Source: Mobula hypostoma
Taxonomy: Eukaryota
Direction of reading: 5' to 3'
Assembly: GCF_963921235.1 (NCBI RefSeq)
Contig: NC_086097.1
Location: 50,470,001 to 50,534,000 of the forward strand
DNA: 64,000 bases
Shown: piece after piece, positions 4,883 through 63,608 of the stretch
Numbering within the stretch: the first letter of the stretch is position 1
Layout: every line of letters starts with the position of its first letter
Program-made: the position numbers and the translations under genes
Notes under the pieces: model-generated
Database searches by the model: none
What the model was told of the DNA's origin: nothing
What the model saw: only the letters and a program-made list of their open reading frames with translations

Positions 4883-5326
4883 AAACTCTGAAGAGTAACA
4901 TGAGAAAATATTTATCTGTAAACATCTGAAGATCAAGGAAGTACCTGTAGCCATTAATCATATAAAAGAGAAAATTGTTGGCAAGGTTGACAGTGTAGAA
5001 ATATTTTAAAGATCTGGCATATGGTTTAATGGCACAAACCATTTACAAATTTTGATTTGTACCCATGAACATTTTTGATTGTATTCATGAATGAAAGATC
5101 TTGAATCCCTCATGTAGTGACGAGGAGATTGTATTTTCATATGGTATTAATGTTCCATCCAACAACCAATATTCTCCTATCACCTTGTGCATTTAAAAGC
5201 AACTTAGTACCTTGCTGATGCATCTAACGTTATCATTATACATGCGAAATGATATTTAGCAAACTCTAATATTTTCAAACTTTAAACATCTTTTAGATTC
5301 AGTTTGAACTGGTCTACCTACGACAT

Positions 5327-6504: not shown

Positions 6505-8425
6505 GAGCTCTTCTTCCACCGCCTCTAATCCTACTTCTTTAGCCAGCCCGTACTGATGACCCCTTCTCCCATCTTCAACCCTCCTCCTCCTCCTGGATAC
6601 CCCACTCTGATCTTCTGCCAGCTCAGGATCATTTCATTGCTAAGTGATGATCAGCCATCAACTGTCTAGACTTCAGCACTCCTCTCTCCATTTCTAACCT
6701 CACTCCTCGCTAAAGCACTGCTCTCCACTCTCTGCACTAATCCTAACCTCACCATCAAACCAGTAGATAAGGGAGGTGCTGTAGTAGTCTGGTGGATTGA
6801 CCTCTGAGGTCAAGCAACAACTCTCAGCCACCACGTCTTACTTACCCCTTGGACAGGACCCTACTAAGGAGCAGCAGGCCATTGTTACCCGCACCATCAC
6901 TGACCTTATTAACTCTGGGATATCCCATCCACTGCCACCAACCTCAGTTCCCTCACCCCACACCTCCCATTTCCACCTCCTACCCAAGATCCACAAACCT
7001 TTTTGTCCAGGTAGACCCATTGTTTCTGCTTGTTCTTACCCCACCGAACTTGTATCTGCATACCTCGGCTCTGTTTTACTCCCCTGATTTAGTCCTTTCC
7101 TATTGACATCCGTGACACTTCACGTACTTTTGATCTTTTCAATTACTTCAATTTCCCTGGCCCAGATGATCTCATTTTCACCATGGATGTCCACTCCCTA
7201 TACACCTCCATTCTCCCATCAGGAATGCCTCAAAGCTCTCTGCTTCCTTCTGGACACCAGATGCGACCAGTTCCCCTCCACCACCGCTCTCCTTCGTTTG
7301 GCAGAACTGGTCATCGCTCTCAATAATTTCTCTTTTGGCTCCTCCCATTTCCTTCAAACAAAAAGCGTAGCCATGGACACACGCATGGGTCCCCACTATG
7401 CCTACCTTTTTGTCAGGTATGTGGAACAGTCCATTCCAAGACTATACCAGTATCACTCCCTAACTTTTGCAACACTACATTGACTGCATTGGTGCTACTT
7501 CCTGCACCCATGCAGAACTCAGAGATTTTGCCTCCAACTGACATCCTGCTGTCAAATTTACCAGGTTTGTTTCTGATTCGTCCCTCCCCTTCCTTGATCT
7601 CTTTCCATCTCTGGAGACAGTTTGTTTGCTGATCTTTTATAAACCCACTGATTCTCACAGGTACCTGGACAAACCTCTTCCCACCCTGTCACTTGTAAAA
7701 ATGCCAGCTCCTCTCTCAATTCCTCCATCTCCACTGCATTTGCTCTCAGGATGAGGCTTTTCATTCCAGAACTAATGAGATGGCTGCCGCCTTCAAAAAA
7801 GGGCTTCCCTCCCTCCAGCATCAACACTGCCCTCAGCTGCATCTCTTCCATTTCACGCACGTCTGTCCATCCTGCCACCCCACCAGGGCTAGGGTTCCTC
7901 TTGTCCTCACCTACCACCCCACCAGCCTTCGCGTCCAACACACAACCATCCATAACTTCTACTATCTCCAGTGGGATCCATCACCACCAAATACATCTTT
8001 CCCTCTCCCCTCTTTCTGCAGGAATAGCTTGCTACGTGACTCCCTTCTCCCGTTTGTCTCTCCCCACTGATCTTCCTGGCACTTATCCTTGCAAGCAGAC
8101 CAAGTGCCAGATCTGCCCCTCCACCTCCTCCCTCACTACAATTCATGGGCCCAAACAGTCCTCCTAGATGAGGTGACACTTCACCTGTGAGTCTGTTGGG
8201 GTCATATCTTGTGTCCTGTGTATTGGAGACCCAACATAGATTGGGAGACCGCTTTGCCAAGCACCTGCACTTCATCCGCCAGAAAAAGTGGGATCTCCTA
8301 GTGGCCACCCATTTCAACTCCACTTCCTATTCCATTCCAACATGTCAGTCCACGGTCATTTCTACAGCCACAATGAGTCCAGACTCCGATTGGAGGGGCA
8401 ACGGCTATTCCGTTTGCACACACAT
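6505..8425 (+). mobile_element. Penelope-like element, degraded RT plus GIY-YIG endonuclease; 3' terminal repeat absent
   Basis: Frameshifted motifs KPVDKGGAVVVW, FHLLPKIHK..CPGRPIVSACS, LAELVIALNNFSF..QTKSVAMDTRMGPHYA, and ETQHRLGDRFAKHL..VATHFNS. Confidence 0.93.
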
Positions 8426-12909: not shown

Positions 12910-14080
12910 CGTTAATGATCTGGATGGTGGAATTTTGTGGTCAAGTTTGCAAGTGATACAAAGATAGGTGGAAGGGCAGGTAGTGTTGAGGAAGAAGAGA
13001 GTCTGCAGAAGGATTTGTACAGATTAGGAGAATGGGCAAAGAAATGGTAGAATACAGTGTAGGGGAGTATATGGTTATGCATTTTGGTAGAGAAAAAATG
13101 GTGTAGACTATTTTCTAAACGGCAAGCAAATTCAGAAATCGGAGGTCCTAGTGCAGGACTCCTTAAACATTAACCTGCAAATGAGTCAGCAGTAAGGAGG
13201 GCAAATGCAATGCTGAAGTTCATTGCAAGAGGACTAGAATAAAAAAGCAAGACTTTACTACTGACACTTTATAAGATATTGGTCAGACCACATTTGGAAT
13301 ATTGTGAGTGGTGTTGAGTCCCATATCTAAGAAAGGATGTACTGGCACTGGAGAGGGTCCAGAGCAGGTTCACAATAATGGTCCTGGGAATGAAAAGGTT
13401 TGATATGAGGAATGTTTGGCTCTGGGCCTGTACTCACTGGAGTTTAGAAGAATGAGGGAGTATCTCATTGAAACCTAATGAATATTGAAAGGCCTAGTTG
13501 GAGTGGATGTGCAGAGGATGTTTCCAAAACTGAGAGAGTCTAGGACCAGAGTGCACAGACTCCGAATAGAAGGGCATCCCTTTAAAAGACAGGTGGAGGT
13601 GTTTCTTTAGCCAGAGGGTAGTGAATCTGTGGAATTCATTGCCATAGAGAGCTGTGGGGGCCCAGTGATTAAGTATATTTAAAGTGTTGGTTGATGGGTT
13701 CTTGATTAGTAATGATGTGAAGGGTCAGGCGGGGATAATGGTGTTGAAAGCGAAAACAATTTTATTTTTATTTATTGACGGTGCAAAGCAGGCCCTTCTG
13801 TCCCTTCGTGATACCCAGCAACCTCCAAATTAACCTTGGCCTAATCATGGGACAATTTACAATGACCAATTAACCTACCAACTAATACATCTCTGCACTG
13901 TGGGAGGAAACTCACGCAGTCATTGGTTGAACATGCAAACTCCTTGCAGACAGCAGCAGGAATTGAACCTGGGTCACTGGAACTGTAAAATGTTGAGGTA
14001 AACACTATGCTACCGTGTTGCCCCAGTCAATCATGAATGATGGTAGAGCAGGGTGAATGGCCTAATTCTTCTCCTATGTT
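12910..14080 (+). mobile_element. CR1 3' fragment, interrupted near its tail by a V-SINE
   Basis: aagtttgcaagtgatacaaag, agaccacatttggaatattgt and agccagagggtagtgaatctgtggaattc. The tail resumes after 14025. Confidence 0.9.
13760..14024 (-). mobile_element. V-SINE nested in CR1 3'UTR
   Basis: Minus-strand B-box (ggaattgaacc on +), V-domain (actgtgggaggaaac, aacatgcaaactcc) and a tttattttta tail. Confidence 0.85.
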
Positions 14081-16757
14081 GGGGAGCCTTTAAACTATTT
14101 TGGCAGAGGAGTGGGAACTGGAATGATTGTGCTGAAGATCGAATGGTGTATAAATCGACTCTACAAGAAACTGCAAGGGTAAAAAGACCCTGATGGGAAT
14201 TATAAACAGTCCACCAAACAGTAGCCAGGATGTGGGATACAAATTACAATGAGATAGAAAGGACATGTAAAAAGGCAATGTTGCAATAGCCATGGGGGAT
14301 TTCAATGTGCATGCAAGAGAGGGAATTTGTAGAATACCTATGAGATGGCTTTTTAAGAGCAGCTTGTAGTTGAGCCCACTAGGGAAAAGGCAATTCTGGA
14401 TTGGTTGTTCCGTAATAGAACAGATATGAATAGGAACTTAAGGTAAAGGAAACCTTGGGAAGCGATCATAATATGATAGAATTCACCCTGTAGTTTGAGA
14501 GGGAGAAAATAAAGTCAAATGAATCAGTATTACAGTGGAGTAAAGGGAATTACTGAGGGATGAGAGGAGCTGGCCAAAGTTGATTGGAGGAGGACACTAG
14601 CAGGGTTACAGCAGAACAACAATGACTGGAGTTTCTGAGGACGATTCAAAGCTGCAGGATAACATGTGCCAAAGATGAAGTATTCTAAAGGGAGGATGAG
14701 AGAACCTTGGCTGTTAAGGGAACTCAAAGACAGACGAGAGCAATATAGCAAAAATTAGTGGGAAGTTAGAGGATTGGGAAACTTTTTTTAAAAAATCAAA
14801 GCAACTAAAAGCCATAAGGAGAGAAAATGTGTAATATGAAGGCCAATAGTATAAGAGGATACCACAAGTTTTTTTTTCCAAATATCTAAGGTGAAAGAGA
14901 GGTGAGAGTGGATATCAGACCGCTGGAGAAGTAGTAATAGGAGACCAAAAAGTGGTGGAGGAACTTAAGTATTTTACGTCAGTCTTCATTGTGGAGTATA
15001 CTAGCAGAATGCCAAGAATGCAAAAGTGTCGGAGGTCAGAAGTGAGTGTGTTACTATTACTGTGGAGAATCTGGTGTTTGGGAAGCTGAAAATTCTGAAG
15101 GTAGACAAGATGGACTACATTGAGGGTTCTGAAAGAGGTAGCTGTGGAGACATTTATAATCTTTCAAGAATCTGGAATGGCCCCGGGGGGCTGGGAAATT
15201 GTAAGTTTTACTGTGGTAAACCATATATATATGTTGTAAGTGGGTTACCTGTCTGGACACGCCCCCGCTGACTGTCCCTGTGGCTCCTCCCACAGATCCC
15301 TGAATAAAGGCGACTGGGCCTTGGCTCCTCCTCTCAGTCCAGAGGCAGACACTCAGCATGCTGGAGGTCACATTTTACTGTGAATAAAAGCCTTTCAGTA
15401 TTGACTCTACTTCCAGTCTTTTGGAGTTATTGATGGTCTGAAAGGGAGGGAGGCAGAAGAAAGGAAGCTGTTGGAGTCCATTATTAAGGATGAGATTTCA
15501 GGGTACTTGGAAGTGCATGAAAAAGTTAGGCCAAAGTCAGCATGGTTTCCTGAATAGGAAATCTTGCCTGACAAAATCTGCTGGAATTCTTTGAGGAAGT
15601 AACAAGTAAGGTAGACAAAGGATGCTTGCTTGGATTTTCAGAAGATCTTTGACAATGTGCTGAACATGAGACTGCTTAACAAGGTGAGAGCTCATGGTAT
15701 TACCGGACAGATACCAGCATAGGTTGAAGATTTGCTGACTGGTAGGAAGCAAAGACTGGGAATAAAGAGGGCCTTTTCTGAGTGGCTGGCAATGACTATT
15801 GTTCCACAGTGGCCTGTGTTAGAACCACCTGTTTTCACATTTTATGTGAATGATTTGGATGACAGAATTGATGGCTTTATGGCCAGGTTTGCAGATGAAT
15901 GGTAGGTGGAGGGGCAGGTAGTATTAAGGAAGCAGAGAATCTGTACAAGGACCTGGACTGGGAGAATGGGCAAAGAAGTGGCAGGTGGAATATAGTGTAT
16001 GCTTATGCACTTTGGTAGAAGGAATAAAGTCATAGACTATTTTCTAAACAGGGAGAAAATTGAAAACTCAGAGATGCAAAGGGACTTGGGAGTCCTTGTG
16101 CAGGATTCCCTAAACATTAATTTGCAGGTTGAGTTGGTGGTAAGGTAGGAAAATGCAATGTTTGAATTCATTTCAAGAGGACTAGAATATAAGAGCAAGG
16201 ATGTGATACTGAGGCATTGTATAAGGCATTGGCTAGACCACAGTGTATTATGAGCATATCTTAGAAAGGATGAGCTGGCATTGGAGAGGGTTCAGAGGAG
16301 GTTCACAAGAATCGTCCCAGGAAGAAAGGGTTAATGTATGAAGAACATTTGATGGCTGTGGGCCTGTTCCTGCTTGTGCTTAAAATAATGAGGGGCATTC
16401 AATGAAATCTATTGAAAATTGAAAGTTCTGGATGGAGTGGATTAAGGAGGATGCTTCCTATAGCGGGTGAGTATAGGACAAGAGGGCACAGCCTTAGATT
16501 ACATAGAGATGAGGAATTTCTTTAGCCAGAGGATAGTGAATCTGTGGAATTCATTGCCACAGGGGACTGTGGAGGCCAGGTCATTGAGTATATTTAAAGC
16601 GGTGATTGATAGGTTTTTGATTAGTCAGGTTTTCTAAGGTTATCGGAAGGAAGAGGAGAATGGGGTTGAACTGGATAATAAATCAGGCATGATGGAATGG
16701 GATAGCAGACTTGATGGGCTGATTAGTCTAATTATGCTCCGATGTCTTGTGGTCTTA
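14081..16757 (+). mobile_element. Longer degraded CR1 (endonuclease remnant, RT, 3' tail)
   Basis: atgggggatttcaat (MGDFN), attctggattgg, RT blocks and the tail attatgctccgatgtcttgtggtctt. Confidence 0.9.
15212..15437 (+). mobile_element. Solo LTR-like insertion inside CR1
   Basis: Interrupts CR1 homology, starts with TGTGGT and contains two AATAAA motifs. The 3' CA terminus appears lost. Confidence 0.6.
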
Positions 16758-17018: not shown

Positions 17019-17677
17019 GTATATATTGGTGAGACTCGACGCAGACTGGGATACTGTTTCGCTGAACACCTACGCTCTGTCCGCCAGAGAAAGCAGGATC
17101 TCTCAGTGGCCACACATTTTAATTCCATGTCCCATTCCCATTCTGATATGTCTACTGTCTGATATGCCTCTACTGTCAAGATGAAGCCACATTCAGGTTG
17201 GAGGAACAACACCTTATATTCCGTCTGGATAGCCTCCAACCTGATGGCATGAACGTTAACTTCTCTAACTTCTGTTAATACCCCTCCTCCCCTTCTTACC
17301 CCATCCCTTATTATTTTTTCCTCCTTTTTTTCTCTCTCTGTCCCTCTCACAATAACTCCTTGCCTGCTCTCCATCTTCCTCTGGTGCTCCTCTCCCCATT
17401 TCTTTCTCCCTAGGCCTCCCATCCTATGATCCTTTCACTTCTCCAGCCTTGTATCCCTTTTGCCAATCAACTTTCCAGCTCTTAGCTCTATCCCTCCCCC
17501 TCCTGTCTTCTCCTATCATTTTGGATCTTCCCCCTCCTCCTCCCACTTGCAAATCTCTTACTATCTCTTCTTTCAGTTAGTTCTGATGAAGGGTCTCGGC
17601 CCGAAACGTCAATTGGGCTTTTTCCTATGGATGCTGTCTGGCCTGCTGCGTTCCACCAGCATTTTGTGTGTGTTGCT
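17019..17677 (+). mobile_element. 5'-truncated Penelope-like element: GIY-YIG end, pyrimidine-rich 3' region and terminal repeat
   Basis: Starts at YIGETRRRLGYCFAEHL...VATHFNS. 11-bp TSD tgattttatac (17008-17018 and 17678-17688). Confidence 0.92.
17579..17614 (+). ncRNA. Minimal type I hammerhead ribozyme motif in the Penelope terminal repeat
   Basis: AGTT-CTGATGA-A-GGGT(CTCG)GCCC-GAAAC-GTC-AATT. Confidence 0.75.
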
Positions 17678-19664
17678 TGATTTTATACTCTACTAGATCA
17701 CCACAGTCTCCTAAACTCCAATGAATAAAGTCCATGCCTATCCAACCTTTCCCTATTAACCAGTCACTCAAATCCTGGCTAAATCTCTTCCAGTTTAATA
17801 ACATCCTTTAGGGGGAATGTGAAGGGAACTTCTGGGTGTGGTGAGAGTGGGTTGAGCTGCCGTCAGAAGTCCTGGATGTGGGTTTGATTTCAACATTTAA
17901 GAGAAATTTGGATAAGCACATTGCTCGGTGTGGTATGGGGGCTATGATCAGTTGTGGGTCAATGGAACTGAGCAGCGTAATAGTTTGACACAGTCTAGGT
18001 GGGCAGAAGGGACTGTGTCTGTGCTTGAGCATTTTTTTGACTATTACTGCTTTTCTAATAGCTGGGTGACCATTTCAACACTCTAGGTATGGCCTCACCA
18101 CAACATGACCTCTGAACTTTTACACTCAATGCCCTGATTGATGAAGGCCAGCATGCCAAATGCTGCCTTCACTACCCTATCTACCTGTGACTCCACGTTC
18201 AGGGAGCCGTGTATTTAACTCCAAGTCCCTCTTCTAAAGTGAAAGATCTACCAAGATTTGGTTTTCCAAAATACAACACCTCTCGCTTATCTGAATTAAA
18301 CTCCAATTGCCATTCCTCAGTCAACTTAGATGATCAATATCCCCTTTAATTTTTGATAACCTTCACTGTCTAAGGTTGTTACCATTTTCTGGACAAAGAC
18401 AATTCTATCTTGTAAACCAAGAATATCATAGCATCTGCAATTTTCACAAATATCAAAGATTTGTAACTCAAGGACATTAGATCCTATAGCTTGTTTTACT
18501 TATAGCATCAGGGAAGAAGCCCCAATATCAGTGACAAAAGGATGACCAGCTAACGTAGATCCAGCAGTAACCTTGCTTGACTTGGAACAGAGGATAACTT
18601 CCAATCCTTACCTTCAAACTGAGCAAAAATCAGTAGACTTTATCCCTCTCCATGCAGGTGCTTTGAAGATAGCCACTTATTTCTGTTCCTCCAAACAACA
18701 CCTCTTTACTTGATTGAAATAATAGAATATATAATTCAAATGCAAATTAGTGCAATTGTTAGGTTCAAATTTGGCAAATACTGCTTGGATTCATGTGTTT
18801 CTATTCTGTGTTTCTCTGCAGAGCCTAGCTCTTTCTGTACTTTTTCATGGTTTTGGTAATCAATCCCAGAAAACCATCAATGCCAGAAAAAGGATATTCA
18901 TCAAGGAAAACAACTGACCTCCCACAATTTCTTCTGTTTCCCAGTTTAATATGTGTTGTTGCGGGATTTATTTTCTTAATCTAATCCTGCTTCTAAACAT
19001 GGCCCTTTTCAGGCTGATCTTTAAGTAATTAGTTCCAACTGTGTTCATTTTACTTCATAATGGAACATTTCCATTTCAGACAGCCAACATCAGTATTGGG
19101 CACTTCCGTTCAGAAATTATACTCTGGAGTCGAGGAAAGATCATTCCAAGAAAATAACTCCACTTTAACCAACCCTTAAGAAATATCCATAGTACCAATT
19201 TAGGATATTTTTATACTTCTTACATCAAATGTTTATAAATGATATCTGGATGTTGATGATTAGTCTTGAACTAAGGATATTTTTATGCTGTTGGCTTGCA
19301 TATATTCCAGGACTTGATTTGAAACAACCAAAATGCATAAGAGGTAGAGACCTCCTATCCACCAAAGCGAGAGACATTCATTCAGTTTGTCACTTCATTA
19401 TTAACCGTATCAGCTTTTAAAAATTAAACAGATGGGTTTCAAAGAAAAAAATACTTTCAGTAAAAAAAAAGCTGCTTCTTGGACACATTGTTATCCATTA
19501 ATGATCATCACTTTTGCCTCTCCCTTCCCCTCCATACCACCTGCCCCCTGCCTCGCCTGGAGTTCCTCAAGAACCTAGAAATAGGAAAAGTAGCTGTGAA
19601 CAATTTTGATCTAAGCTTTGTAAATAGACTTGCATTCTTCAATGACTACAAACAAGTACTGGAT

Positions 19665-25530: not shown

Positions 25531-25769
25531 TCAACTGTAGCAGCACAAACGGTAGTAACAAATGGCCAAAATAATATCAATGAAACCCAAGGTCCAGATT
25601 CAGGCTGGCTTCCCAGCATCAATTTCATGTAAACAAATGCCACCTCCAGCGCAGTGTGTCTTCCTTTCCATACAGGATTATCTTATAAATGTTTCAACGC
25701 ATAGAATTAACTTTTTCATCTACAATTTTAAAAAAAAAGGATCCCTAAACTCTCCTTAAGAATTACGAA

Positions 25770-27628
25770 TTGGATGAATATGGGAAGGTATCAGGTTACA
25801 AAATAAACTGGGATAAAAGTGAAATTTTATCTCTTACTAAAGGAGACTATAGTCAATGTGGATTAGTAACCCAATTTAGATGGCCGGTAAATGGTATAAA
25901 GTATTTAGGTATAAGACTTGATAGTGATGTAAAAAATTTATATAAATTTAATTATTTACCACTATTGAAAAAAATTCAAGAAGATCTTGACAAATGGATG
26001 ATACTACCAATAACATTAGTAGGTAGAGTCAATGTTGTAAAAATGAATATATTTCCGAGATTACAGTATTTGTTTCAAACATTACCAATACAATTGCCAC
26101 AGAAATTTTTTCAAGAGTTAAATAAATCTGTGAGAAAATTTCTTTGGAAAGGTAAAATGTCAAGAATATCATTGGAAAAATTGACATGTAAATTTAGGTT
26201 AGGAGGGTTACAACTTCCAAACTTTAAAAATTACTATAAAGCAAATCAACTTAGATTTATTGCATCTTTTTTCGATGATCAAAAACCAGCATGGATTAAA
26301 ATAGAACTAGACAAGATAGGAGAAAATAAACCTGAAGATTTTATATATAAATGGGAATCTAAATGGATATGGGAAAAGAAAGAATCTCCTATATTAACAC
26401 ACTTGATTGATCTATGGAATAAGATGAATGTTGATAAGGAAACGCAGAAATCTCTATTAGCAAGGAGACCTTTGTTTCAGAACAGACTTATTCCTTTCAC
26501 AATGGACAATCAACTTTTATATAATTGGTACCAAAAGGGGATTAAATTTATAGGAGATTGTTTTGAGCGAGGTATATTGATGTCATTTGAACAATTAAAG
26601 GATAAATATAAAATATCTAATAATACTTTCTTTTGTTATTTTCAGTTAAGGGCTTACTTGATAGGTAAGCTGGGTCAAACAATGTTTTTGCCAAAAGCTA
26701 ATGAAATTGAAATTTTAATTCAAAAAGGAAAAATTAAAAAATTTGTTTCTTGTATGTATAATTTGATTCAAGAACAGACAATTAAACAAGGAACCCATAA
26801 GTCAAAGCAAAAATGGGAAACAGATCTGAATATTAATATTGATGAAATAAATTGGTCAAGACTTTGTCTGGATAGTATGACAAATACAATAAATGTTCGA
26901 CTTAGATTAGTACAATATAATTTTTTACACCAATTATATATTACACCACAAAAAATAAATAGATTAAACTCAAATCTATCTGATAAATGTTTTCGGTGTA
27001 ATCAAGAAATTGGTACTTTTTTACATTCTACTTGGTCTTGTTTTAAAATTCAACCTTTTTGGATAAATTTAAGAATCTTATTGGAACAAATTACTGGAAT
27101 TCAACTTCCACATAACCCTGTATTATTTCTATTAGGTGATATTGAAGGGATAAAACCGAAACTTAAATTGAATAAATATCAGAAAGAATTTATAAAAATT
27201 GCACTGGCAGTAGCTAAGAAGACTATAGCAGTTACTTGGAAATCTGATTCGTATTTAAGCATGGATCGTTGGAATAATGAAATGGCTAGTTCTATTCCAC
27301 TTGAAAAAATTACTTATAATTTAAGAGATAATTATGTAACATTCTTGAATATTTGGCGCCCTTATTTACAAAAGATAGGATGTCATATTTAAGTGCTCCG
27401 ACAAAGAATTTGGTTACTTGGGGAAAGTAACGAATAATTATACCAAATTTATTTTGAATCCCATGGAGCATGTGGAAACCTTCCAATACCCAGGCGGCTC
27501 CTTTTTTTTTTCTTTCTTTCTTTTAGGTAGGACTACATATGGGGGGGGGGGAGGGCTAAGGGGAGGGGGGGTAGATTTTATCTTTTCATGTATTTTTGAA
27601 AATTTAATTAAAATTATATATAAAAAAA
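25770..27628 (+). mobile_element. Young 5'-truncated L1-clade LINE; intact 540-codon C-terminal part of ORF2 (25770-27392)
   Basis: SGYKINWDKS, IKYLGI, GRVNVVKMNIFPRLQYLF, GGLQLPNF and CCHC knuckle CFRCNQEIGTFLHSTWSC. Poly-A tail. 12-bp TSD aagaattacgaa (25758-25769 and 27629-27640). Confidence 0.96.
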
Positions 27629-27884: not shown

Positions 27885-30311
27885 CGAAAATACATGTCAA
27901 AAGGGAAATGTTACAATAGTCATGGCACCTTCAATATGTAGGTAGGTGCTGGATCCCAAGAGGGGAGATTTCTAGAATGCCTATGTGATGGCTTTTTAGA
28001 GTAGCTTGTGGTTGTGCTCACTAGAGGACCAACTATTCTGGATTGGGTGTTGTGCAATGAACCAGAATTGAGTAGAGAGCTTAAGGTAAAAGAACCCTTA
28101 AGAGAAAATTATTATAATATGATTAAATTCTCCCAGAAATTTGAGAGGAGAAGATGTTACAGTGGAGTAAAGGGAATTACAGAGATATGAAGGAGAAGTT
28201 GGCCAGAATTGATTGGAAAAGACAACTGGCAGGGATGACAGCAGAGCAGCAATGGCTGGAATTTCTAGAAGCAATTTGGAAAGCACAGGACACATACATC
28301 GGAAAGAGGAAGAAGTATTCTAAAGGAAAGATGACAGAACCATGGCTAACTAGAGCAGTCAAAGCCAACATAAAAGCCAAAGAGAGTAAAAATTAGTGGG
28401 AAGTTAGAGGATTGGGAAACTTTCAAAAACCAACAGAAGGCAACCAAAGAAGTTATTAAGACGGTAATAATGGAATACAAAAGTAAACTAGCCGATAATA
28501 TGAAAGAGGATACCAAAAGTTTCTTCAGATACATGAAGTGTAAGAGAGGCAAGAGTGGATATCAGACCGCTGGAAAGCAATGCTAGAGAGGTGGTAATGG
28601 GGGATGAACTGAATAAATATTTTGCATCAGTCTTCACTGTGGAAGACACTTGCAGTATGGTGGAAGTTCCAGGTGTCAGGGGGTATGAAGTGTGTGAAGT
28701 TACCATAACTAGAGCGAAGGTTCTTGGGAAGCTGAAAGGTCTGAAGGTAGGTAAGTCACCTGGACTAGATGGTGTACACCTCAGAGTTCTGAAAGAGGTG
28801 GCTAAAGAGATCGTGGAGGCATTAGTAATGATCTTTCAAGAATCACTAGGATCTAGAATGGTTTCGGAAGACTGGAAAATTGCAAATATCATTCCACTCT
28901 TCAAGGGAAGGAGGCAGAAGAAAAGAAACTATAGGCCAGTTAGCCTGACCTCAGTGGTTGGGAAAATGTTGGAGTCGATTATGAAGGATGAGGTCTCAGG
29001 GCACTTGGAGGCACATGATAAAATAGGCCGTAGTCAGCATAGTTTCCTCAAGGGAAAATCTTGCCTGGCAAATCTGTTGAAATTCTTTGAAGCATTAACA
29101 AGCAGGATAGACAAAGGAGAATTGGTGTATGTCGTGTGCTTGGATTTTCAGACGGCCTTTGACAAGGTGCCATATGTGAGGCTGCTTAACAAGCTACGAG
29201 CCCATGGTATTACAGGGAAGATTCTAGCATTGATAAAGCAGTGGCTGATCGGCAGGAGGCAAAGAGTGGGAATAAAGGGAGCCTTTTCTGGCTGACTGAC
29301 GGCGACTGGTGTTGTTCCATAGAGATCTGTGTTGGAACCAATTCTTTTTACGCTACATGTCAATGATTTGGATGATGGAAGTGACGGCTTTGTTGTAAAG
29401 TTTGCAGATGATATGAAGATAGGTGGAAGGGCAGGTAGTTTTGAGGAAGTAGAGAGGCTACAGAAGGACTTAGATTAGGAGAATGGCCAAAGATATGGTA
29501 GATGGAATACAGCGTCAGGAAGCGTATGGTCATGTACTTTGGTAGAAGAAATGAAAGGGTTGACTATAAGAGAGAAAGTACAAAAAAAAACTGAGGTGTG
29601 AAGGGACTTTTGTGCAGGATTCACTAAAGGTTAACTTGAGTCTGTGGTGAAGAAGGTAAATGCAATGTTGGCATTTACTTCAAGAGGACTAGAATATAAA
29701 GTCAAGGATGTAATTTTAAGATTTTATAAAACACTGGTGAGCCCTCACTTGGAGTATTGTGAGCAGTATTGGGCCCCTTATCTTAGACAGGATGTACTGA
29801 AACTGCAGAGGGTTCAAAGGAGATTCACGAAAATGATTCCAGGATTGAACGACTTGTCATATGAAGAGTGTTTGATGGCTCTGGGCCTGTATTCACTAGA
29901 ATTCAGAAGAATGAGGGGTGACCTCATTGAAACTAATTGAATAGAGAAAGGCCTTGATAGGGTGGATGTGGAGAGGATGTTTCCTATGGTTGGAGATCCT
30001 AAGACCAGAGGACACAGCCTCAAAATAGAGGGGCATCCTTTTAGAACAGAGATGTGGGGGAATTTCCTTAGCCAGAGTATGGTGAATCTGTGGAATTCTT
30101 TGTCACAGACAGCTGTGGAGGCCAAATCTTTATGTACGTTTGTATATTTAAGGCAGATGTTGATAGATTGTTGACCGGTCAGGGCTAGAAGAGATACGGG
30201 GAGAAGACAGGATATTGGGGCTGAGAAGAAAATTGGATCAGCCATGATGAAATGGAGGAGCAGACTGGGTGGGTCAAATGTCCTAACTCTGCTCCTTTAT
30301 CTTATGGTCTT
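27885..30311 (+). mobile_element. Long degraded CR1 (endonuclease remnant, RT, tail)
   Basis: ORF pieces ILDWVLCNE, KSPGLDGVH, NYRPVSLTSVVGK, LDFQTAFDKVP and PHLEYCEQYW. Confidence 0.95.
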
Positions 30312-30780
30312 ACAGTCTTATCTGTTGAAACACAGAGAACTGGCAAATGTATGTGACCCATCTCAAAGTGAAATGCAGACTCTGATTAATTTTTAAAGAT
30401 TTACTTCCTATTCTACTTGATACTAAGTAGACTGACAGGAAAAAAAAATAGCATAATGTCCATGCAGTGGCACCACAACCAGCGAATCTGCGCATAAAAT
30501 CGAATTAAAGTGTTGAATATCATCAATTAGAGTGAAAGGGAAGCAGATGCCAATGTACTGAAATCCAAACCGGTTTTGTCATGTTACAGAGCTATGGTCA
30601 TGCTTGTTAGCAAAGGTAGTTGACAGGTTATAAATTAATCCAAATAATAAACTATTCAATCACATTATCCCTTGATATTTTGACAAATTATATTAACTGT
30701 TCATGTATTTTTATCATTCTGTATCAATAAATGTTACTATATGACCTGCTTATTTAGTCATATCTTTCTAACATTATAAA

Positions 30781-30897
30781 CTAACTCTTCCTTCAGTTAG
30801 TCCTGATGAAGGGTCTCGGCCTGAAACGTCGACTGCACCTCTTCCTAGAGATGCTGCCTGGCCTGCTGCATTCACCAGCAACTTTGATGTGTGTTGG
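30781..30897 (+). mobile_element. Solo Penelope terminal-repeat fragment
   Basis: Closely matches 17561-17676. Confidence 0.9.
30798..30835 (+). ncRNA. Minimal type I hammerhead ribozyme motif
   Basis: TAGTC-CTGATGA-AGG(GTCTCGG)CCT-GAAAC-GTC-GACTG. Predicted cleavage after C30830. Confidence 0.8.
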
Positions 30898-35529: not shown

Positions 35530-35565
35530 AGTCCTGACGAAGGGTCTCGGCCCGAAACGTTGACT
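35530..35565 (+). ncRNA. Minimal type I hammerhead ribozyme motif
   Basis: AGTC-CTGACGA-A-GGGT(CTCG)GCCC-GAAAC-GTT-GACT, with a GUU triplet. Confidence 0.8.
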
Positions 35566-35628: not shown

Positions 35629-38600
35629 GGAAAGAATATAAAGAATGGCTAGACAAGGAAGAAAGTTGCCAAAATTGTGGATAGTGGTGCAAGGGCAGAT
35701 GCTGGATGAATTTCTACAGATGTTCACCCATTCGCCATCTGCCCCTGAAAAGGAAGAGCTAACAGCTCCCAACAAAAAAAAGAAGGAACTCAGTTTAAAC
35801 TGGTTTTCCAGATAAAATACGTTGCATGACATGTTTCTTCTCAATTGGGGGATGTAAGGGGCAGGAGAGGAATTGGATTCTTTTTTTTAACCAGTTAATC
35901 ATGGAATAATGTCAATTTTGACAATTTTCATGCTTGTCAGTATGACAGATGATAAAGCTTCTGAATGGAATATTTTGCACACTTTACATCCTTTGTTGCA
36001 AGCATTGCCAGATTTGATCAGTCCCAGTTTTGATGTAGATCATGATATAATTTAGCATAACTTAATAACATACATTATGTTCCAAATGAGAACAATATAC
36101 TGTTCAGCAGTGTAATTTTTTCCCTCTATTTATTATGCAAGATACTTCCTAGCCATTAATATGAAATTTGATTACTATTTTCCATTAACTTGTAAAATAA
36201 AAATGAATTGAGAATTATTCAAGTTACTTCCATTTAGTCTCTCGACTAAGTCTTTTAGCACATCTGGGATGGATTTCATTACAAATCTCAAGGGATGTTT
36301 GACCTCTGCAAAGATTCCATCATTCTTCTATCAAGCCTTTGGCAGAAGGCTATGGAAATGTTGGAAAGCTAAGTCATTGCATCAGGGGGATAATCTCCAC
36401 AGAAATCCCTGCTGCCTGCCACCTCCTTTGCAATCTCACCCATTACTCCTTATCCAGTCCCAATGCAACATTAATTTTAGTTCTGCCTTCTCTGTTTTTG
36501 TGCTGGAAGAACATTCTGAAAAGGAAGGAACTTAATTATTTTTGACATGTCTTTAATTAGATTGCCTAAGTGCTGCAGTTCAATGAATTGGAGTATTGAA
36601 AGGGGAACTTTGCTGCCAGCAATTGCCTATGATATTCTCTTCTTCCTTATGGCCTTATAAAAATCAGGCAGGGAGATGACATCCTACCCTTGTCCATTTT
36701 GTGTTGCTGGCCCAGATCAATTTCACTCTATTTCTTTGCATGCGTTTTGAAGTTTAAGTTTTTAAAATAAATATTTTTTTGAGAAATTAAAAAAATGTAC
36801 AAAATTAATTTCTATTGTTTTAAGGACATATGGAATGCATGAGGGAAACTAGTTTAGTCAAAGTAAGTGATGCATGGATTTTCTTGAACTATAGCCAGAC
36901 AAGCTGGGCTGGTAGGGAGGAGTCCGTTTAGTATTTCTCAAGACATGTTTTAAAAATCTTAGCTGAAATTAAGTTTTCATAAATGTCTTGTGCTTTTTTA
37001 ACATGGCTTTAGAAAGTTTAATGTTAATCTCTGACAATATTCCCCAACTTAAAACACACACATAAATTGGTCTGCAGATGATAAGAATAACATAAGGTCC
37101 ATATGTAATGTGTTGTCTCTGGCCCTCCCCCTTGCTGCTTTATGCATTTGAATTGTATTTGGACATGTGCCTATGTCAGAGCTATAGCACAGCACACAAA
37201 TGTAAGATAGCTGAGCACATTCAGCTGTGTGGAGATTGAGCTTCTGGAGAAATATTTTAAGTGAATGAAGTTTGAGGAATTTTGGGTATGAAGTGGTGAT
37301 GTACAAGAACAGACACTCCAACTCTGCACATTTTATGAAGAAAAAGATATATAAATACAGTATAACCAAAGATTTAGGAACAAAAATAAGGACTAATGTT
37401 ATTAATTAATTTCAGGGCAAAGACATTTTTGAACAAAGGCTCTGAAAGTTAAAAATTGCCATTCATTTAATCCTGATGCTTAACAAATTTTTGGAAGTTA
37501 GAAACCATTAGTTTTATCTGAACTTATTTCCACTCTGCTTTGTGCAATTGAGACCTTTTGCATCTTTGTTAATATTAAAAAAAACATAGTACAGTCCTAT
37601 AAATAATTTAAAGAACTGTGACTTTGGTCATCACCAATAGAAAAGTTTCTGTTGACTTTGATGGAACTGAATATTACAAACTAGGTACAGCTGATGGCCA
37701 TGACACTGCAAACATTTACTGTACATAGCCAAAGAAATATTCCTTGCAAGGTATTTCATCAGTAAAAATTTGACAGAAAAATATAGATCAGATGGCACTT
37801 CATAATATAAATAATCTTATGCAGTATTATATATGTATATAAAAACACTCATTACATACTTTAGATTTCCTACCCAACAATTAATTTTCATCAGTAGCAA
37901 TCTAAAATTAGTTGCACAACACCGATTTCCTCTAATAGTCTTTTTACCCCAATCTCCCCTTTGCATATCCCCTAGAAAGTGTGTGTTGGAATGTAAAAAG
38001 TAGAAGAATCTAGAGAATCATATAGATTAACAAAGTAATTATTATTTTAAAGGGGGGGGAGGGGAGACATTCCCCCTCCCCCCCCTCCCCCCCACTATTA
38101 TTTTAAAAAGGCAGAGTTCCGGATCTCATTTTAGAAAGAACTAAATGATTGAGGTGATACGTTAAACTTGCCTTGAAATTGCTGCAGACTCAGTGAAGGT
38201 ACCCCCTCTGCTGATGTTTGCTCAGGTCCAGCTATAATGAAGGAACAGCAACTATTCACAAGTCAGGGGACCTGCACTGGGGAAGTCCCATGCATCTGGC
38301 CTCATTCTACTTGGTATCAGACTTTGTGGGTTTGGGATGAACGGCAGTGCATTTTTATACTGCAGCTATTGTGCATGGGTGGTACAGGAAGAGACTGTTT
38401 GAGATTGGATGGACTGCTGATCAAGCAGGCTGCTTTGTCCTCGTGGTGTTAGGCTTCCAGTGCTATTGAAGCTACACTCATACAGGGAAAAGGAGAGTAC
38501 CACACTTTGCTTTGTGCCTTGGAGAAGGGAGAAAGATGTCAGGAGATGAATCACCATTTCATAACTAGCTTGTGTGAAATATATAAAAGTTAGAACCTAA

Positions 38601-39959: not shown

Positions 39960-42145
39960 GCTAATATTTTCAGGCACGACTGTGGGGCCATCAGTAATTG
40001 GTGTGCGCTCAGGAAGTTAGGATCAAATGAAGTGCATGAGTAATATAAAGAAGCCAGAAAAGAACTAAAGAAGAGATTAGGAAAGCCAGGAGGGGTCATG
40101 GAAAGTGCTTGGCAAGTAGGATTAGGGTGAATCCTAAAGCAGTCTAAACATGCATCAGAACCAAAAGGGTAACTAGGGAAAGGGTGGGACCACTCAAGGA
40201 TAAAGGTGGAACATTTACATGGATGCAGAGAATGTGAATGAGATACTTAATGAGTACTTTGCTTTAGTATTTACCAAGGAAAAGGATATGGAAGGCCTGG
40301 AGATCAGAGCTGAATGTCTAAATACATCAGGATGTTTAGAGGTCAAGGAGATGAGGTGTTGGGTCTCCTAATGAGTATTAAGGTGGATAAATCCCCAAGA
40401 CCTGATGGATATTGAAGGAGGCAAGAGATGAGATTGCTGGGCCCTTGACCAGTATCTTCATGTCCTCTCTAGCACAGGCAAGGTCCCGAAGGACTGGCGG
40501 GTGGCTAATGTTGTACCTCAAGAAGAGAATAAGAGAAAATCCTGGGAACTATAGACCGGTGAGTCTCACATCAGTTGAAGGGAAATTGCTGGAGAAAGTT
40601 CTTAGGGATAGGGTATATGAGTATTTGGAAACCCATGACCTAATTAGGGTGAGCCAGCTTGTCTTTGTGCGTGGCAGGTTGGGCCTTACTAACTTGACTG
40701 AGTTTTTTGACAAAGTGACAAGAGGGATTGATAAGGGTAGGACAGTGGATGTTATCAACATAGATTTTAGTGAGGCGTTTGACGAAGTTCCTCATGGGAA
40801 GCTAATCCAGAAGATTAAGAGGCATGATGTCTGCAGTGAATTAGCTGTTTGGATTCAGAACTGACTTGCATTTTAAAGACAAAGGGTAGTGGTTGAAGGG
40901 ATCTATTTGAGCTGGAGGTCTGTAATTAGTGTGTTCCACAGGGATCTGTGCTGGGACCTCTGCTGTTTGTGATGTATATAAATGACATGGATGAAAATAT
41001 AGATGGGTGAGTTAGTAAATCTGCGGTTGATACCAAAATTGGTGGAGTTGTGGATAGTGTAGAAGACTGGCAAAGAATACAACACAGTATAGATCAACAC
41101 ACATAAAAGTTGCTGGTGAACGCAGCAGGCCAGGCAGCATCTCTAGGAAGAGGTACAGTCGACGTTTCAGGCCAAGGCCCTTTGTCAAGACCCGAAATAT
41201 CGACTGTACCTCTTCCTAGAGATGCAGCCTGGCCTGCTGCGTTCACCAGCAACTTTTATGTGTGTTGCTTGAAATTCCAGCATCTGCAGATTTCCTCGTG
41301 TTTGTGACAATATAGATCAGTTGCAGGTATGGGCTGAGAAATGGCAGATGGAGTTTAACCCAGATAAATGTGAGGTGTTGCACCTCGGTAGGGCAAATAC
41401 AAGGAGACAGTACACTGCTAAGGGTAAGGTCCTTAACAGTGTTGCTGAGCAGAGAGATCTTGGGGTCCAAGTTCATAGCTCCTTGAAAGTGGTTACACAG
41501 GTCAAAAAGGTAGTTGAGAAGGCTTATGGAATGGTTGCTTTCATTAGCTGAGGCATTGAGTTCAAAAGTCACAAGGTAATATTGCAACTTTCTAAAACCC
41601 TGGTTAGGCCACATCTGGAGTATTGCATACATTTCTGGTTGGAAGGATGTTAAGGCTTTGGAGAGGTTTACCAGGATGCTGCCTGGTTTAGAGGACATGT
41701 GTTATCACGGGAGGGTGGATAAGCTTGGGGTTTCTCTGAAGCACTGGAGGCTGAGGGAAGATCTGATAGAGGTTTACAAGATTATGGGAGGCGTAGATAG
41801 AGTGAACAGAGAATATCTGTTTCCCAGGATTGAAATCTCAAATACCAGGGGGCTAGTATTGAGGGTGAGAGGGGCTAGGCTCAAAGGGGATATGAGGGGT
41901 AAGTTTTTTTACTCAGAGAGTGGTGGATGCCTGGAATGCACTGCCTGGTTTGGTGGTAGAGGCAAATAACTAGAGACTTTTAAGAGACATTTGGATAGGC
42001 ACATGGATGTAAGGAAGATACCGGGATATGGACATGACCTATGTAGGAGGGATTAGTGTTTGGGTGCTTTTGATTTTCTGAGCTGGTTTGGCACAACATT
42101 GTGGGTCGAATGGCCTGTTCCTGTGCTGTACTGTTCTATGTTTAG
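39960..42145 (+). mobile_element. Degraded CR1 (RT to tail)
   Basis: NPGNYRPVSLTSVEGK, IDFSEAFDEVPH, WQMEFNPDKCEVLH and the tail gtgctgtactgttctatgtt. Confidence 0.95.
41095..41306. mobile_element. Fold-back Penelope terminal-repeat insertion inside CR1
   Basis: 68-bp inverted arms (41095-41162 and 41200-41267) with 1 mismatch. TSD acagtatagatca / acaatatagatca (41084-41096 and 41307-41319). Confidence 0.93.
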
Positions 42146-48641: not shown

Positions 48642-48764
48642 AGATAGATAGATAGATATACTTTATTGATCCTGAGGGAAATTGGGTTTTGTTATAGCCG
48701 CACCAACCAAGTATAGAGCATAAATATAGCAATACAAAAACCACAAACAATCAAACAACAAATA
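48642..48764 (-). mobile_element. Short 3' tail of a non-LTR element with an (ATCT)n end
   Basis: agatagatagatagatatactttattgatcc reads as AATAAA plus a tetranucleotide tail on the minus strand. Confidence 0.65.
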
Positions 48765-49873
48765 TTGGTGTGGGTGGAGAATTGGTTAGCAGACAGGAAG
48801 CAAAGAGTGGGAATAAACGGGACCTTTTCAGAATGGCAGGCGGTGACTAGTGGGGTACCGCAAGGCTCAGTGCTGGGACCCCAGTTGTTTACAATATATA
48901 TTAATGACTTGGATGAGGGAATTAAATGCAGCATCTCCAAGTTTGCGGATGACACGAAGCTGGGTGGCAGTGTTAGCAGTGAGGAGGATGCTAAGAGGAT
49001 GCAGGGTGACTTGGATAGGTTGGGTGAGTGGGCAAATTCATGGCAGATGCAATTTAATGTGGATAAATGTGAAGTTATCCACTTTGGTGGCAAAAATAGG
49101 AAAACAGATTATTATCTGAATGGTGGCCGATTAGGAAAAGGGGAGGTGCAACGAGACCTGGGTGTCATTATACACCAGTCATTGAAAGTGGGCATGCAGA
49201 TACAGCAGGCGGTGAAAAAGGCGAATGGTATGCTGGCATTTATAGCGAGAGGATTCGAGTACAGGAGCAGGGAGGTACTACTGCAGTTGTACAAGGCCTT
49301 GGTGAGACCACACCTGGAGTATTGTGTGCAGTTTTGGTCCCCTAATCTGAGGAAAGACATCTTTGCCATAGAGGGAGTACAAAGAAGGTTCACCAGATTG
49401 ATTCCTGGGATGGCAGGACTTTCATATGAAGAAAGACTGGATGAATTGGGCTTGTACTCGTTGGAATTTAGAAGATTGAGGGGGGATCTGATTGAAACGT
49501 ATAAGATCCTAAAGGGATTGGACAGGCTAGATGCGGGAAGATTGTTCCCGATGTTGGGGAACTCCAGAAGGAGGGGTCACAGTTTGAGGATAGAGGGGAA
49601 GCCTTTTAGGACCGAGATTAGGAAAAACTTCTTCACACAGAGAGTGGTGAATCTGTGGAATTCTCTGCCACAGGAAACTGTTGAGGCCAGTTCATTGGCT
49701 ATATTTAAGAGGGAGTTAGATATGGCCCTTGTGGCTACGGGGGTCAGGGGGTATGGAGGGAAGGCTGGGGCGGGGTTCTGAGTTGGATGATCAGCCATGA
49801 TCATAATAAATGGCGGTGCAGGCTTGAAGGGCCGAATGGCCTACTCCTGCACCTATTTTCTATGTTTCTATGT
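48765..49873 (+). mobile_element. Young 5'-truncated CR1 with an intact 338-codon RT C-terminal frame
   Basis: SGVPQGSVLGP, YINDL, SKFADDTKL and RPHLEYCVQFW with no stops. Tail tttctatgtttctatgt. Confidence 0.97.
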
Positions 49874-59146: not shown

Positions 59147-59329
59147 CTCTAAACCTTTGCTCTTCACATACACGTCCAAGTGCCTTTAAAATATTATTAA
59201 TGTCCCTGCCTCAATTGCTTCCTCTGGTTCTCACTCCATACTGATCAATCTCCAGGTGAAAAAGTTGTGCTCAATTTCAATTAAACCTCTTCCCTCTCAC
59301 GTAGACAAATGCTCACTAGTTCTCGATTC

Positions 59330-60065
59330 CTCAACTTGATTCTTTTTACATTACATGTCAATGATTTGGATGATGGAATTGATGGCTTTGTGGACGATCT
59401 GAAGATAGTTGGAGGGACAAGTAATGTTGAGGAAGCAGGGAGTCCACAGAAGGACATATATTGGGAGAATGGGCCGAGAGGTGGCAGGTGAAATATAGTA
59501 AAAGGGAAGTGCATGGTCATGCACTTTGGCAGAAGGAATAAAGGAATAGATTATTTTCTAAATGAGAAAATTGAAAAATCAGAAATGCAAAGGGATTTGG
59601 AAGTCCTTGTACAGGATTCTTTAAAGATTAACCTGCAGATTGACTTGGTGGTAAGGAAGGCAAATTCATTTCGAGAAGACTAGAACCTAAGAACAATGAT
59701 GCAATGCTGAACCTTTATAAGATTTTATAAGGCTTTGGTCAGACTGCACTTGGAGAATTGTGTACAGTTTTGGGCCCCTTATCTATGAAAAGATGTGCTG
59801 GCATTGGAGAGGGTCCAAAGGTGATCCACAAGATTGTTTCTCAAAATTCAAAGTAAAATTATTATCAGAGTACATACATGTCACCACATACAACCCTGGG
59901 TATGAAGGGATTAATATATAAAGAACACTTGATTCGCCAGGGCATCAAAGGTTATCGGGAGAAATGAAAGGGGTTGAGAGAAACAATAAACCAGCCAAAA
60001 TGGCAGACTCAATGGATCAAATGGACTGATTCTGCTCCTGTGTCTTATGTTTTTATGGTCTAAAA
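59330..60065 (+). mobile_element. Degraded CR1 3' fragment with a small nested tail fragment (about 59840-59900)
   Basis: VNDLDDGIDGFV, gcacttggagaattgt and the tail ctgattctgctcctgtgtcttatg. Confidence 0.85.
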
Positions 60066-60350: not shown

Positions 60351-60786
60351 AGTTTCCTGCGCATTCACTCTATCTGTGCCCCTCATAATTTTTAAACACA
60401 CATTCTATTGACTACATTTAACCATTTGTGAAAAATTAAAACCCATACTTTATTCTGTCTCCACAGACAGGTTACTCTTTTTGTTCTTTAATTGGCTCCA
60501 CTCTTCATTTCTGTCTTGCCCTTCGCATGTTCTTTTTGTTTCACAACATCCTTTAAGCTTTCCTTGATTTTCCCATGCCCTTTCTTTTTATGTTTCCTCT
60601 GCTTTTACCACTGTATTTTCCATACTCACGTAGGCTTTCAACAATATTTTGCTCTTGCAATGTGATAATAAGTTTTCTTTTATGCTTTATCCTATTCTAT
60701 ATCCATATGCTCCTTAACAGACAGAGGGTTAAAAATTTAGGAACTTCATCTTTTACTTTGTGGGAACCTACTTGTTCTGAACATTA

Positions 60787-60921
60787 ACAACAGGAATTCT
60801 GCAGATGCTGGAAAATCAAGCAACATACATCAAAGTTGCTGGTGAATGCAGCAGGCCAAGCAGCATCTATAGGAAGAGGCGCAGTCGACGTTTCAGGCCG
60901 AGACCCTTCGTCAGGACATTA
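60787..60921 (-). mobile_element. Solo Penelope terminal-repeat insertion
   Basis: Reverse complement of the 30798-type repeat. Perfect 14-bp TSD tgttctgaacatta (60773-60786 and 60922-60935). Confidence 0.93.
60884..60917 (-). ncRNA. Minimal type I hammerhead ribozyme motif
   Basis: Minus strand reads GTC-CTGACGA-AGG(GTCTCGG)CCT-GAAAC-GTC-GAC. Confidence 0.8.
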
Positions 60922-61914: not shown

Positions 61915-62135
61915 TGGAGACTCAAGAGACTGTAGATGCTGGAATCTGGAGCAACAAACCATCTGTTGGAGCAACTCGGCCGGTCAAGCATCATCTGTGG
62001 GAGGAAATTAATAGTCAATGTTTCAGGCCAAACCCCCGCATCAGGATCAGGGTTTCAACCCAAAACATCAACAATTCCTTTCCTTTCACAGATGCTGGGT
62101 GATCTGCTGATTTTTTCCAGCAGATTGCTTGTTGT
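61915..62135. mobile_element. Older fold-back Penelope-terminus repeat
   Basis: Imperfect inverted arms centred near 62045-62050. Degenerate core CTGATGC-GGGG...CCT-GAAAC on the minus strand. Confidence 0.75.
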
Positions 62136-62739: not shown

Positions 62740-62978
62740 ATTTACCTTGGCTGCACAAGAGACTATAGCTGATGTAATCTGAAGCAAAAAAAAAAAAATC
62801 CAAGCTGCTGGAAGAGCTTAGCAGCTCAGGCAGCACCTGTGGAAGTAAAGGGATAGTTAATTGTTTGGGTTGAGGCCCTGCATCAGGACTCAACCCAGTT
62901 CTGATGGTCATGATCCAAAACGTCAACTATCCCTCTGACCGCCTGGTCCTCTGAGTCCCTCCAGAAGCTTGTGTTATT
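62740..62978. mobile_element. Older fold-back repeat with two divergent hammerhead-like cores
   Basis: ...gcatcaggact-caacc-cagttctgatgg...caaaacgtcaact. Confidence 0.7.
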
Positions 62979-63434: not shown

Positions 63435-63608
63435 CGGATCTTAACCATCAGGACTGGGTTGAGTCTGGATACAGGATCTCAACCTGAAATGTCAACTGTC
63501 CCTTTACCTCCAAGGATGCTGTCTAACCCACTGAGATCCCCCAGCAGCTTGTTTTTGCTTTTTGCTCCAGATTCCAACATCTGCAGTCATTTGTTCAGCC
63601 AAGGTGAA
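63435..63608. mobile_element. Inverted sister copy of 62740-62925
   Basis: Its reverse complement aligns along its length with 62740-62925. The two spurious ORFs share TIRTGLS.D.G.QP. Confidence 0.8.

Follow-up and report, generated by a model that had tools for sequence, protein, structure and literature searches.

The motif at 30798 in this stretch of Mobula hypostoma DNA raises the question of whether it is a hammerhead ribozyme, what carries it, and whether it still cuts. We analysed the whole 64-kb stretch around it (the window; all positions refer to it unless another locus is named). An earlier note on this DNA had proposed four near-intact copies of a minimal hammerhead, with a cut expected after 30830. 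Parsing each sequence recovered all four copies at the positions and strands that it gave, and in hammerhead numbering C17 of the 30798 copy falls on 30830, the base after which cleavage is predicted.

Anatomy of the motif in the window

The motif and the four core-intact copies that hold it are:

30799..30834, + strand: minimal type I hammerhead, predicted cut after 30830 (manual parse; fits the Fig. S3 consensus of PMC4209133)
30780..30896, + strand: 5'-truncated 3' end-piece of ~117 nt with the 30798 motif, 95% identical to the 3' end of L051
17020..17680, + strand: longer truncated copy with a hammerhead at 17579-17614, 80% identical to L051
35530..35627, + strand: short copy from stem I onward, with a hammerhead at 35530-35565 that has U17, and a 7-bp common flank word
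60786..60917, - strand: short copy starting within the stem I 5' arm, with a hammerhead at 60917-60884 (parse and flank search)

Stem I of the 30798 copy pairs a 5' arm AGUC (30799-30802) with a 3' arm GACU (30831-30834) over 4 bp, and an extra U30798.G30835 pair lengthens it to 5. The core CUGAUGA (30803-30809) is followed by an additional A at 30810, a 4-bp stem II (30811-30814/30819-30822) with a 4-nt loop and a closing G.U pair, GAAA at 30823-30826, the palindrome ACGU at 30826-30829, and then C17. All four window copies contained CUGANGA, GAAA and NUH in type I order and formed 4/4 stem II pairs, closed by G.U in the 30798 and 60917 copies and by G-C in the other two. The extra base between A9 and 10.1 was an A in all four, as it was in 89 of the 95 young copies described below. 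A stem III reduced to the self-complementary ACGU, as the note had described, was present without a loop and intact in all four. The note's stem I arms of AGUC and GACU held exactly for two copies (30799 and 35530, the latter with U at position 17) and failed for the others: the 17579 copy has arms AGUU/AAUU, with 4/4 pairs still possible, and the 60917 copy is 5'-truncated. In the order 17579, 30798, 35530 and 60917, stem I thus makes 4, 4, 4 and 3 pairs.

Abundance in the window and the genome

The core descriptor gave 4 matches in the 64-kb window and 0 when reversed, and 200 shuffles gave a mean of 0.02 and a maximum of 1. A family profile found 17 window matches at E < 0.05, with the core intact in 4 and not in the other 13. 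Genome counts covered 3.48 Gb in 200 contigs. A 34-nt family pattern had 45,139 exact matches, rising to 141,046 when as many as 3 mismatches were allowed, with a control count of 0 in both cases. The core-only descriptor gave 126,215 matches, compared with 954 when reversed, and 97 of the first 100 matches listed were, by eye, the same family or close variants. This leaves ~125,000 intact cores, or about one per ~28 kb, and upholds the claim of very high copy number. An Rfam covariance-model scan returned 0 hammerheads among its 16 matches at E up to 10.

Cores with a base other than A at position 9 gave 6,116 genome matches against 1,270 for the control, and about 18 of the first 100 of these listed had C. 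Three neighbouring older copies in the window, at 62046 (-), 62890 (-) and 63462 (+), also have no A there; two have C, while decay of the third leaves it compatible with this pattern. These copies may belong to an older subfamily whose core varies at this position. A separate family with C at position 9 was not supported: the sole locus opened, L068, was a typical young copy that had acquired a point change. Four nearby related sequences at G000:C1 4.39-4.44 Mb (L070-L073) have a hammerhead-like core without A9 and a different stem II, and are possibly a local repeat.

The carrier is a Penelope-like element

The motif sits in the pseudo-LTR (pLTR) of a Penelope-like element (PLE), apparently of Neptune/Nematis type. 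At locus L053 the whole pLTR-ORF-pLTR unit is present, with one motif at 5124 and another at 421, both on the ORF strand; it measures about 3.7 kb once a LINE insertion of ~1 kb is subtracted. Full elements carry the motif twice, about 300 nt past the ORF stop and, in the partial pLTR copy upstream, ~170 nt ahead of the start ATG; the latter distance, taken from the first motif base, puts the ATG ~140 nt past the cut site. The motif directly preceded the ORF 5' end at 9 of 10 loci, and at 8 of the 11 fetched RT-matching loci (window excluded) it lay 1.6-1.75 kb downstream on the same strand. The L053 anatomy, the ORF 5' ends and the fit to the PMC4209133 consensus bear out the note's attribution of the motif to the minimal type I hammerheads of PLEs. 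The upstream pLTR varied in length from about 3 to 756 nt.

A protein search with the window fragment 7088-7480 gave 36,231 first-look candidates in the genome. The frames of L051, L053 and L054 contain DKG, the RT motif YIDD and, C-terminally, GIY-YIG with CCHH in a single ORF, and L051, L052 and L053 have a C-x3-CxxC linker between RT and EN. The Pfam match to GIY-YIG (E 4.6e-4) was below the curated cut-off, Pfam gave no RT match in the element ORF, and the 612-aa frame of L054, searched against PDB sequences, gave 0 matches at E up to 1. The RT is thus a putative one, assigned by its motifs only. By the definitions given in PMC8557442, the element would be a C-terminal EN+ PLE of Neptune or Nematis type, a motif-based rather than tree-based assignment. 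No intact full-length ORF was found among 150 scored matches, where the longest open frame was 634 aa, and all coding copies opened were broken. The window holds one such body:

6813..8416, + strand: decayed older PLE body (RT, linker, GIY-YIG) in ORF pieces, 74% identical to L051

It contains stops and frameshifts, and its 3' end, including the hammerhead, is missing.

The young subfamily has a 16-codon upstream ORF between the hammerhead and the main start ATG (L061:1425-1475 and equivalents). In L053 a TGA that follows an upstream ATG and precedes the ORF seems to be in frame with both. We rejected selenocysteine use or read-through at this codon because, of 9 aligned copies, 4 have a 2-nt indel that shifts the frame and 8 have a common in-frame ATG downstream.

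Truncated copies and their ends

In addition to the four core-intact copies, the window contains the following end-pieces, all found with the family profile:

41090..41304, both strands: two end-pieces inverted back to back with their tails pointing outward, cores damaged or missing
61925..62134, both strands: older inverted pair of end-pieces, core decayed
62758..62974, both strands: older inverted pair of end-pieces, core decayed
63459..63595, + strand: older end-piece, core decayed

The 30780..30896 piece terminates at the first of two tail end sites, and a flank search found no target-site duplication for it. The 17020..17680 copy runs from the GIY-YIG coding end through a pyrimidine-rich 3' UTR to the hammerhead and tail, and its flanks have an 11-bp common word, a likely target-site duplication. 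The 60786..60917 copy reaches the second tail end and has a 14-bp common flank word, likewise a likely duplication. Common flank words of 7-14 bp therefore accompany three of the four core-intact copies, the 30798 copy having none.

Measured from the motif start, the 3' ends of 87 young copies fell mostly into two clusters, with 41 at +92..+104 and 31 at +131..+144; 9 ran into the ORF and 6 ended elsewhere. The clusters lie ~37 nt apart, matching the PLE tail of 30-40 bp described in PMC8557442. The 5' ends of 29 independent exact-motif loci were more scattered: 10 lay upstream of the motif by no more than 25 nt, 2 at -26..-50, 3 at -51..-300, 10 at -301..-1000 and 4 beyond. At least 8 of these 29 loci had an inverted back-to-back partner within 1.5 kb, and 2 had a same-strand motif within that distance, ~780 nt away and not as a repeat unit. 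Starts within 25 nt upstream, and inverted partners that often both end near the motif, may mark an RNA start or a stop of reverse transcription. Short copies matched the end of a coding copy at 92-97% identity.

At 30780-30797, and at L053:5141-5120 (-), a branch-point-like word, a pyrimidine tract and an AG stand directly before stem I, like a 3' splice site. In long-context folds the catalytic core can be paired with this pyrimidine tract. A comparable U-rich/AG flank occurs in several of the published PLE hammerheads (PMC4209133 Fig. S3), and in D. virilis an intron ends just before hammerhead stem I, as described in the same paper. Canonical splice ends occurred at 0 of the 15 joints listed from public assembled contigs, which held 128 further joints.

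Conservation of the motif

Copies were gathered with a profile of the sequence downstream of the motif, which gave 126 matches, 121 of them usable, in 79 sequences. Comparisons were made on 95 of 97 young copies and on 19 of 24 older copies, after 5 with less than 55% identity over the motif were dropped; this filter (at least 55%), together with the choice of many loci by their motif, biases the older set (n = 19) toward conservation. The common variants among the 95 young copies were at -19/-17, +36, +37, +48 and +58, all outside the motif. The sole frequent variant inside it was the pair 10.1-11.1 (G.U in 80, G-C in 13). In the 19 older copies the majority base agreed with the young reference over 33 of the 36 positions of the motif, the three exceptions being the free N7, a loop base and the pair 10.1-11.1, while the spacer and upstream flank diverged. 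No compensatory double change was found in either stem among the 95 young and 19 older copies, which showed only one-sided G-C/G.U changes. In public contigs, among the matches listed, loose ends piled up at or within 2 nt of both motif borders; this is as expected if other subfamilies share only the motif block, and supports such sharing weakly.

Purifying selection on the motif in replicating masters is partly shown by these comparisons, and the constraint would be visible only between subfamily masters. The earlier note had proposed that a lack of preferential conservation in young copies would refute its reading. That is the wrong test, because inserted copies decay neutrally.

Folding and the junction record

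In minimum free energy (MFE) folds of monomers, G5-G8 paired with C15.2-C17 in 5 of the 6 copies folded, and the sixth buried the core too. Because it has no separate stem III, a lone copy is predicted to form an inactive hairpin. For the 30798 copy, the double-hammerhead fold had -11.1 kcal/mol versus -26.7 for the dimer MFE, under a nearest-neighbour model that ignores core contacts.

Copies made from RNA that had already been cut would begin at the cut site, and we counted 5' junctions by demanding four non-matching bases ahead of a fixed 27-mer. Raw counts were 407 at the cut site, 126 at +3, 193 at -12 and 64 at +13, a 2-6 fold excess over the control positions in counts that carry no denominators. 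By eye, the first 100 cut-site junctions listed included 21 inversion junctions and 14 internal deletions, both classes guided by a GAC common to stem I or core (microhomology), and 5 of 6 cut-site loci opened were inversion junctions. At the upstream control (-12), about 40 of the first 100 listed were one-base deletions. After the microhomology cases, about a third of those listed, a roughly two-fold cut-site excess remains, which is at best weak and confounded. Set beside the 45,139 exact intact copies, templates that had been cut can have been no more than a small minority. We consider it quite unlikely that the excess is an in vivo cleavage footprint, that is, a minority of insertions copied from RNA already cut after C17. 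If it were true, a family of ~125,000 copies could decide if, and at what point, PLE ribozymes cut in living cells, which none of the compared papers shows.

Proposed mechanism and alternatives

We hold with high confidence the overall picture of a PLE pLTR hammerhead, spread as tail-primed truncated copies and inert in lone copies, and catalysis is its weakest link. Reverse transcription would start at either of two sites downstream of the cut site, at distances of ~65 and ~100 nt, as suggested by the priming described in PMC11167929 and by the two end clusters observed here. Because priming would occur just past the motif, the motif would be copied first, and synthesis would usually stop early. 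Early stopping would account for the end-pieces of the 30780-30896 kind that fill the genome and often form inverted pairs, back to back. Most insertions carry an intact junction across the cut site, and so would have come from templates that were uncut or re-joined there. The likely job of the motif would be to trim or circularise a tandem precursor RNA by slow cleavage, assisted by a dimer or by protein. Selection would retain the ribozyme in masters, in which tandem RNA together with the protein of the element would permit such cleavage. The dispersed copies, ~125,000 of them, most likely persist as inert passengers, given that a lone copy lacking stem III is computed to fold into the inactive hairpin.

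A reading that shares all of this except catalysis is that the motif no longer cuts and is retained in the PLE RNA leader for a structural or protein-binding role, or hitch-hikes beside the priming site. It fits the G.U rather than G-C closure of stem II in the youngest subfamily (80/95), the predicted burial of the core in monomer folds, and the finding of a few hundred cut-site junctions against tens of thousands of intact copies. Published work also points this way: catalytic mutants were without effect on insertion in vitro and Anolis RNA-seq ends at the site were not found, as reported in PMC11167929, and Naiad PLEs are described as thriving without a hammerhead (PMC8557442). Loss of catalysis would not by itself account for the retention of all catalytic positions across subfamilies while the free N7 and the flanks vary. 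Moreover, the G.U pair also occurs in the cichlid, Xenopus 1 and S. mansoni 1 rows of PMC4209133 Fig. S3, and the Anolis motif does cut with protein present (PMC11167929). We regard a non-catalytic motif as rather unlikely.

The short copies could also form an independent non-autonomous family, SINE-like or made of retrozyme monomers, that begins at the ribozyme and is mobilised by PLE protein. The crowding of 5' ends near the motif suggests this, with 10 of 29 exact-motif copies starting within 25 nt upstream versus 3 of the 29 across the 250 nt between -51 and -300, but choosing loci by the motif inflates any pile-up at its border. The 5' ends are also ragged, running from -45 to -1 and into the motif, the short copies match the coding-copy end at the 92-97% given above, and no tandem arrays of a unit were seen in the loci opened, so that we judge a separate family very unlikely. 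Still less probable, to the point of being remote, is that dispersed copies act in host introns and UTRs, as monomers or as cis or trans dimers, and shape the transcriptome. With ~125,000 intact cores, long pre-mRNAs would hold several same-strand copies, and the ACGU palindrome is intact in every core-intact window copy. Against this, the published monomers do not cut and dimers cut little (PMC4209133), same-strand partners lay within 1.5 kb at only 2 of 29 loci, the inverted partners at 8 or more of these loci would mask the motif as double-stranded RNA, and 13 of the 17 family matches in the window have no core.

Relation to known systems

Sequences of this kind are already known, and the novelty is their scale in the Mobula hypostoma genome. 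The association of minimal hammerheads with PLEs has been published since 2014 (Cervera & De la Pena, PMC4209133). Like the metazoan PLE hammerheads described there, the present motif has a U-rich flank, short stem I, CUGANGA plus an extra base, stem II, GAAA, a palindromic loopless stem III and NUH; it lies in both pLTRs, and occurs mostly as single truncated copies with opposite-strand pairs close together. Monomers of those minimal hammerheads gave no cleavage and dimers a low level, according to the same paper. The 40 species of its Fig. S3 include no cartilaginous fish. Whereas that survey stresses heterogeneity, one homogeneous family dominates here, and its ~125,000 cores are more than 10x the 4,000 of coelacanth and 9,000 of Xenopus reported there, in counts made with different descriptors.

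The PAc element (Poseidon) of Anolis carolinensis (Frangieh et al. 2024, PMC11167929) is likewise a vertebrate PLE with a hammerhead at the pLTR-ORF junction and with two 3' end sites that form the tail. Its hammerhead, the one vertebrate PLE ribozyme with published biochemistry, is reported to cut only with the element's protein and to be dispensable for insertion in vitro. In the PAc model, extension from both target strands would explain inverted pairs. The PAc ORF starts inside stem II, unlike the present one, whose ATG lies ~140 nt past the cut site, and PAc belongs to Penelope/Poseidon, whereas the element here has the linker zinc finger of Neptune/Nematis. With the Neptune/Nematis EN+ PLEs of Craig et al. 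(2021, PMC8557442) it has in common the GIY-YIG with CCHH, CX2-5CxxC, DKG, the partial-tandem pLTR, the 30-40 bp tail and the inverted truncated partner; that paper calls the role of PLE hammerheads unclear. Non-LTR retrozymes (Li et al. 2026, 10.64898/2026.07.22.740005) also have a type I hammerhead derived from PLE pLTRs, and are reported in the one Chondrichthyes genome sampled. Retrozymes, however, are described there as tandem non-coding arrays, whereas the present copies are dispersed end-pieces of a coding element; judged by spacing only, the window copies lie kilobases apart and form no tandem array. Our literature search on hammerhead ribozymes in chondrichthyans found no paper.

The ~125,000 cores exceed every count given in the compared papers, and such a number could make in vivo function testable. 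The family is large enough to give statistical power to comparisons of 5' end positions with the cut site, and to a search for depletion of sense intact copies from introns. Ribozyme screens of such genomes would be swamped by these remnants.

Other contents of the window

A 547-aa open frame at 25749-27392 (+) had no Pfam match, and we take it to resemble the C-terminal half of an L1-type ORF2. RVT_1 matches were found at 48717-49781 (+) and 28537-29295 (+), and repeats at 2000-2800, 13000-13700, 15600-16600, 40400-41970 and 59300-59850; these presumably represent many CR1/L2-type LINE remnants. The 223-aa frame at 56872-57543 (-) contains an integrase core (rve, E 1e-9) and is probably an LTR-retrotransposon remnant. 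Lastly, a G-rich/C-rich perfect inverted repeat at 38031-38096 draws several spurious microRNA matches.
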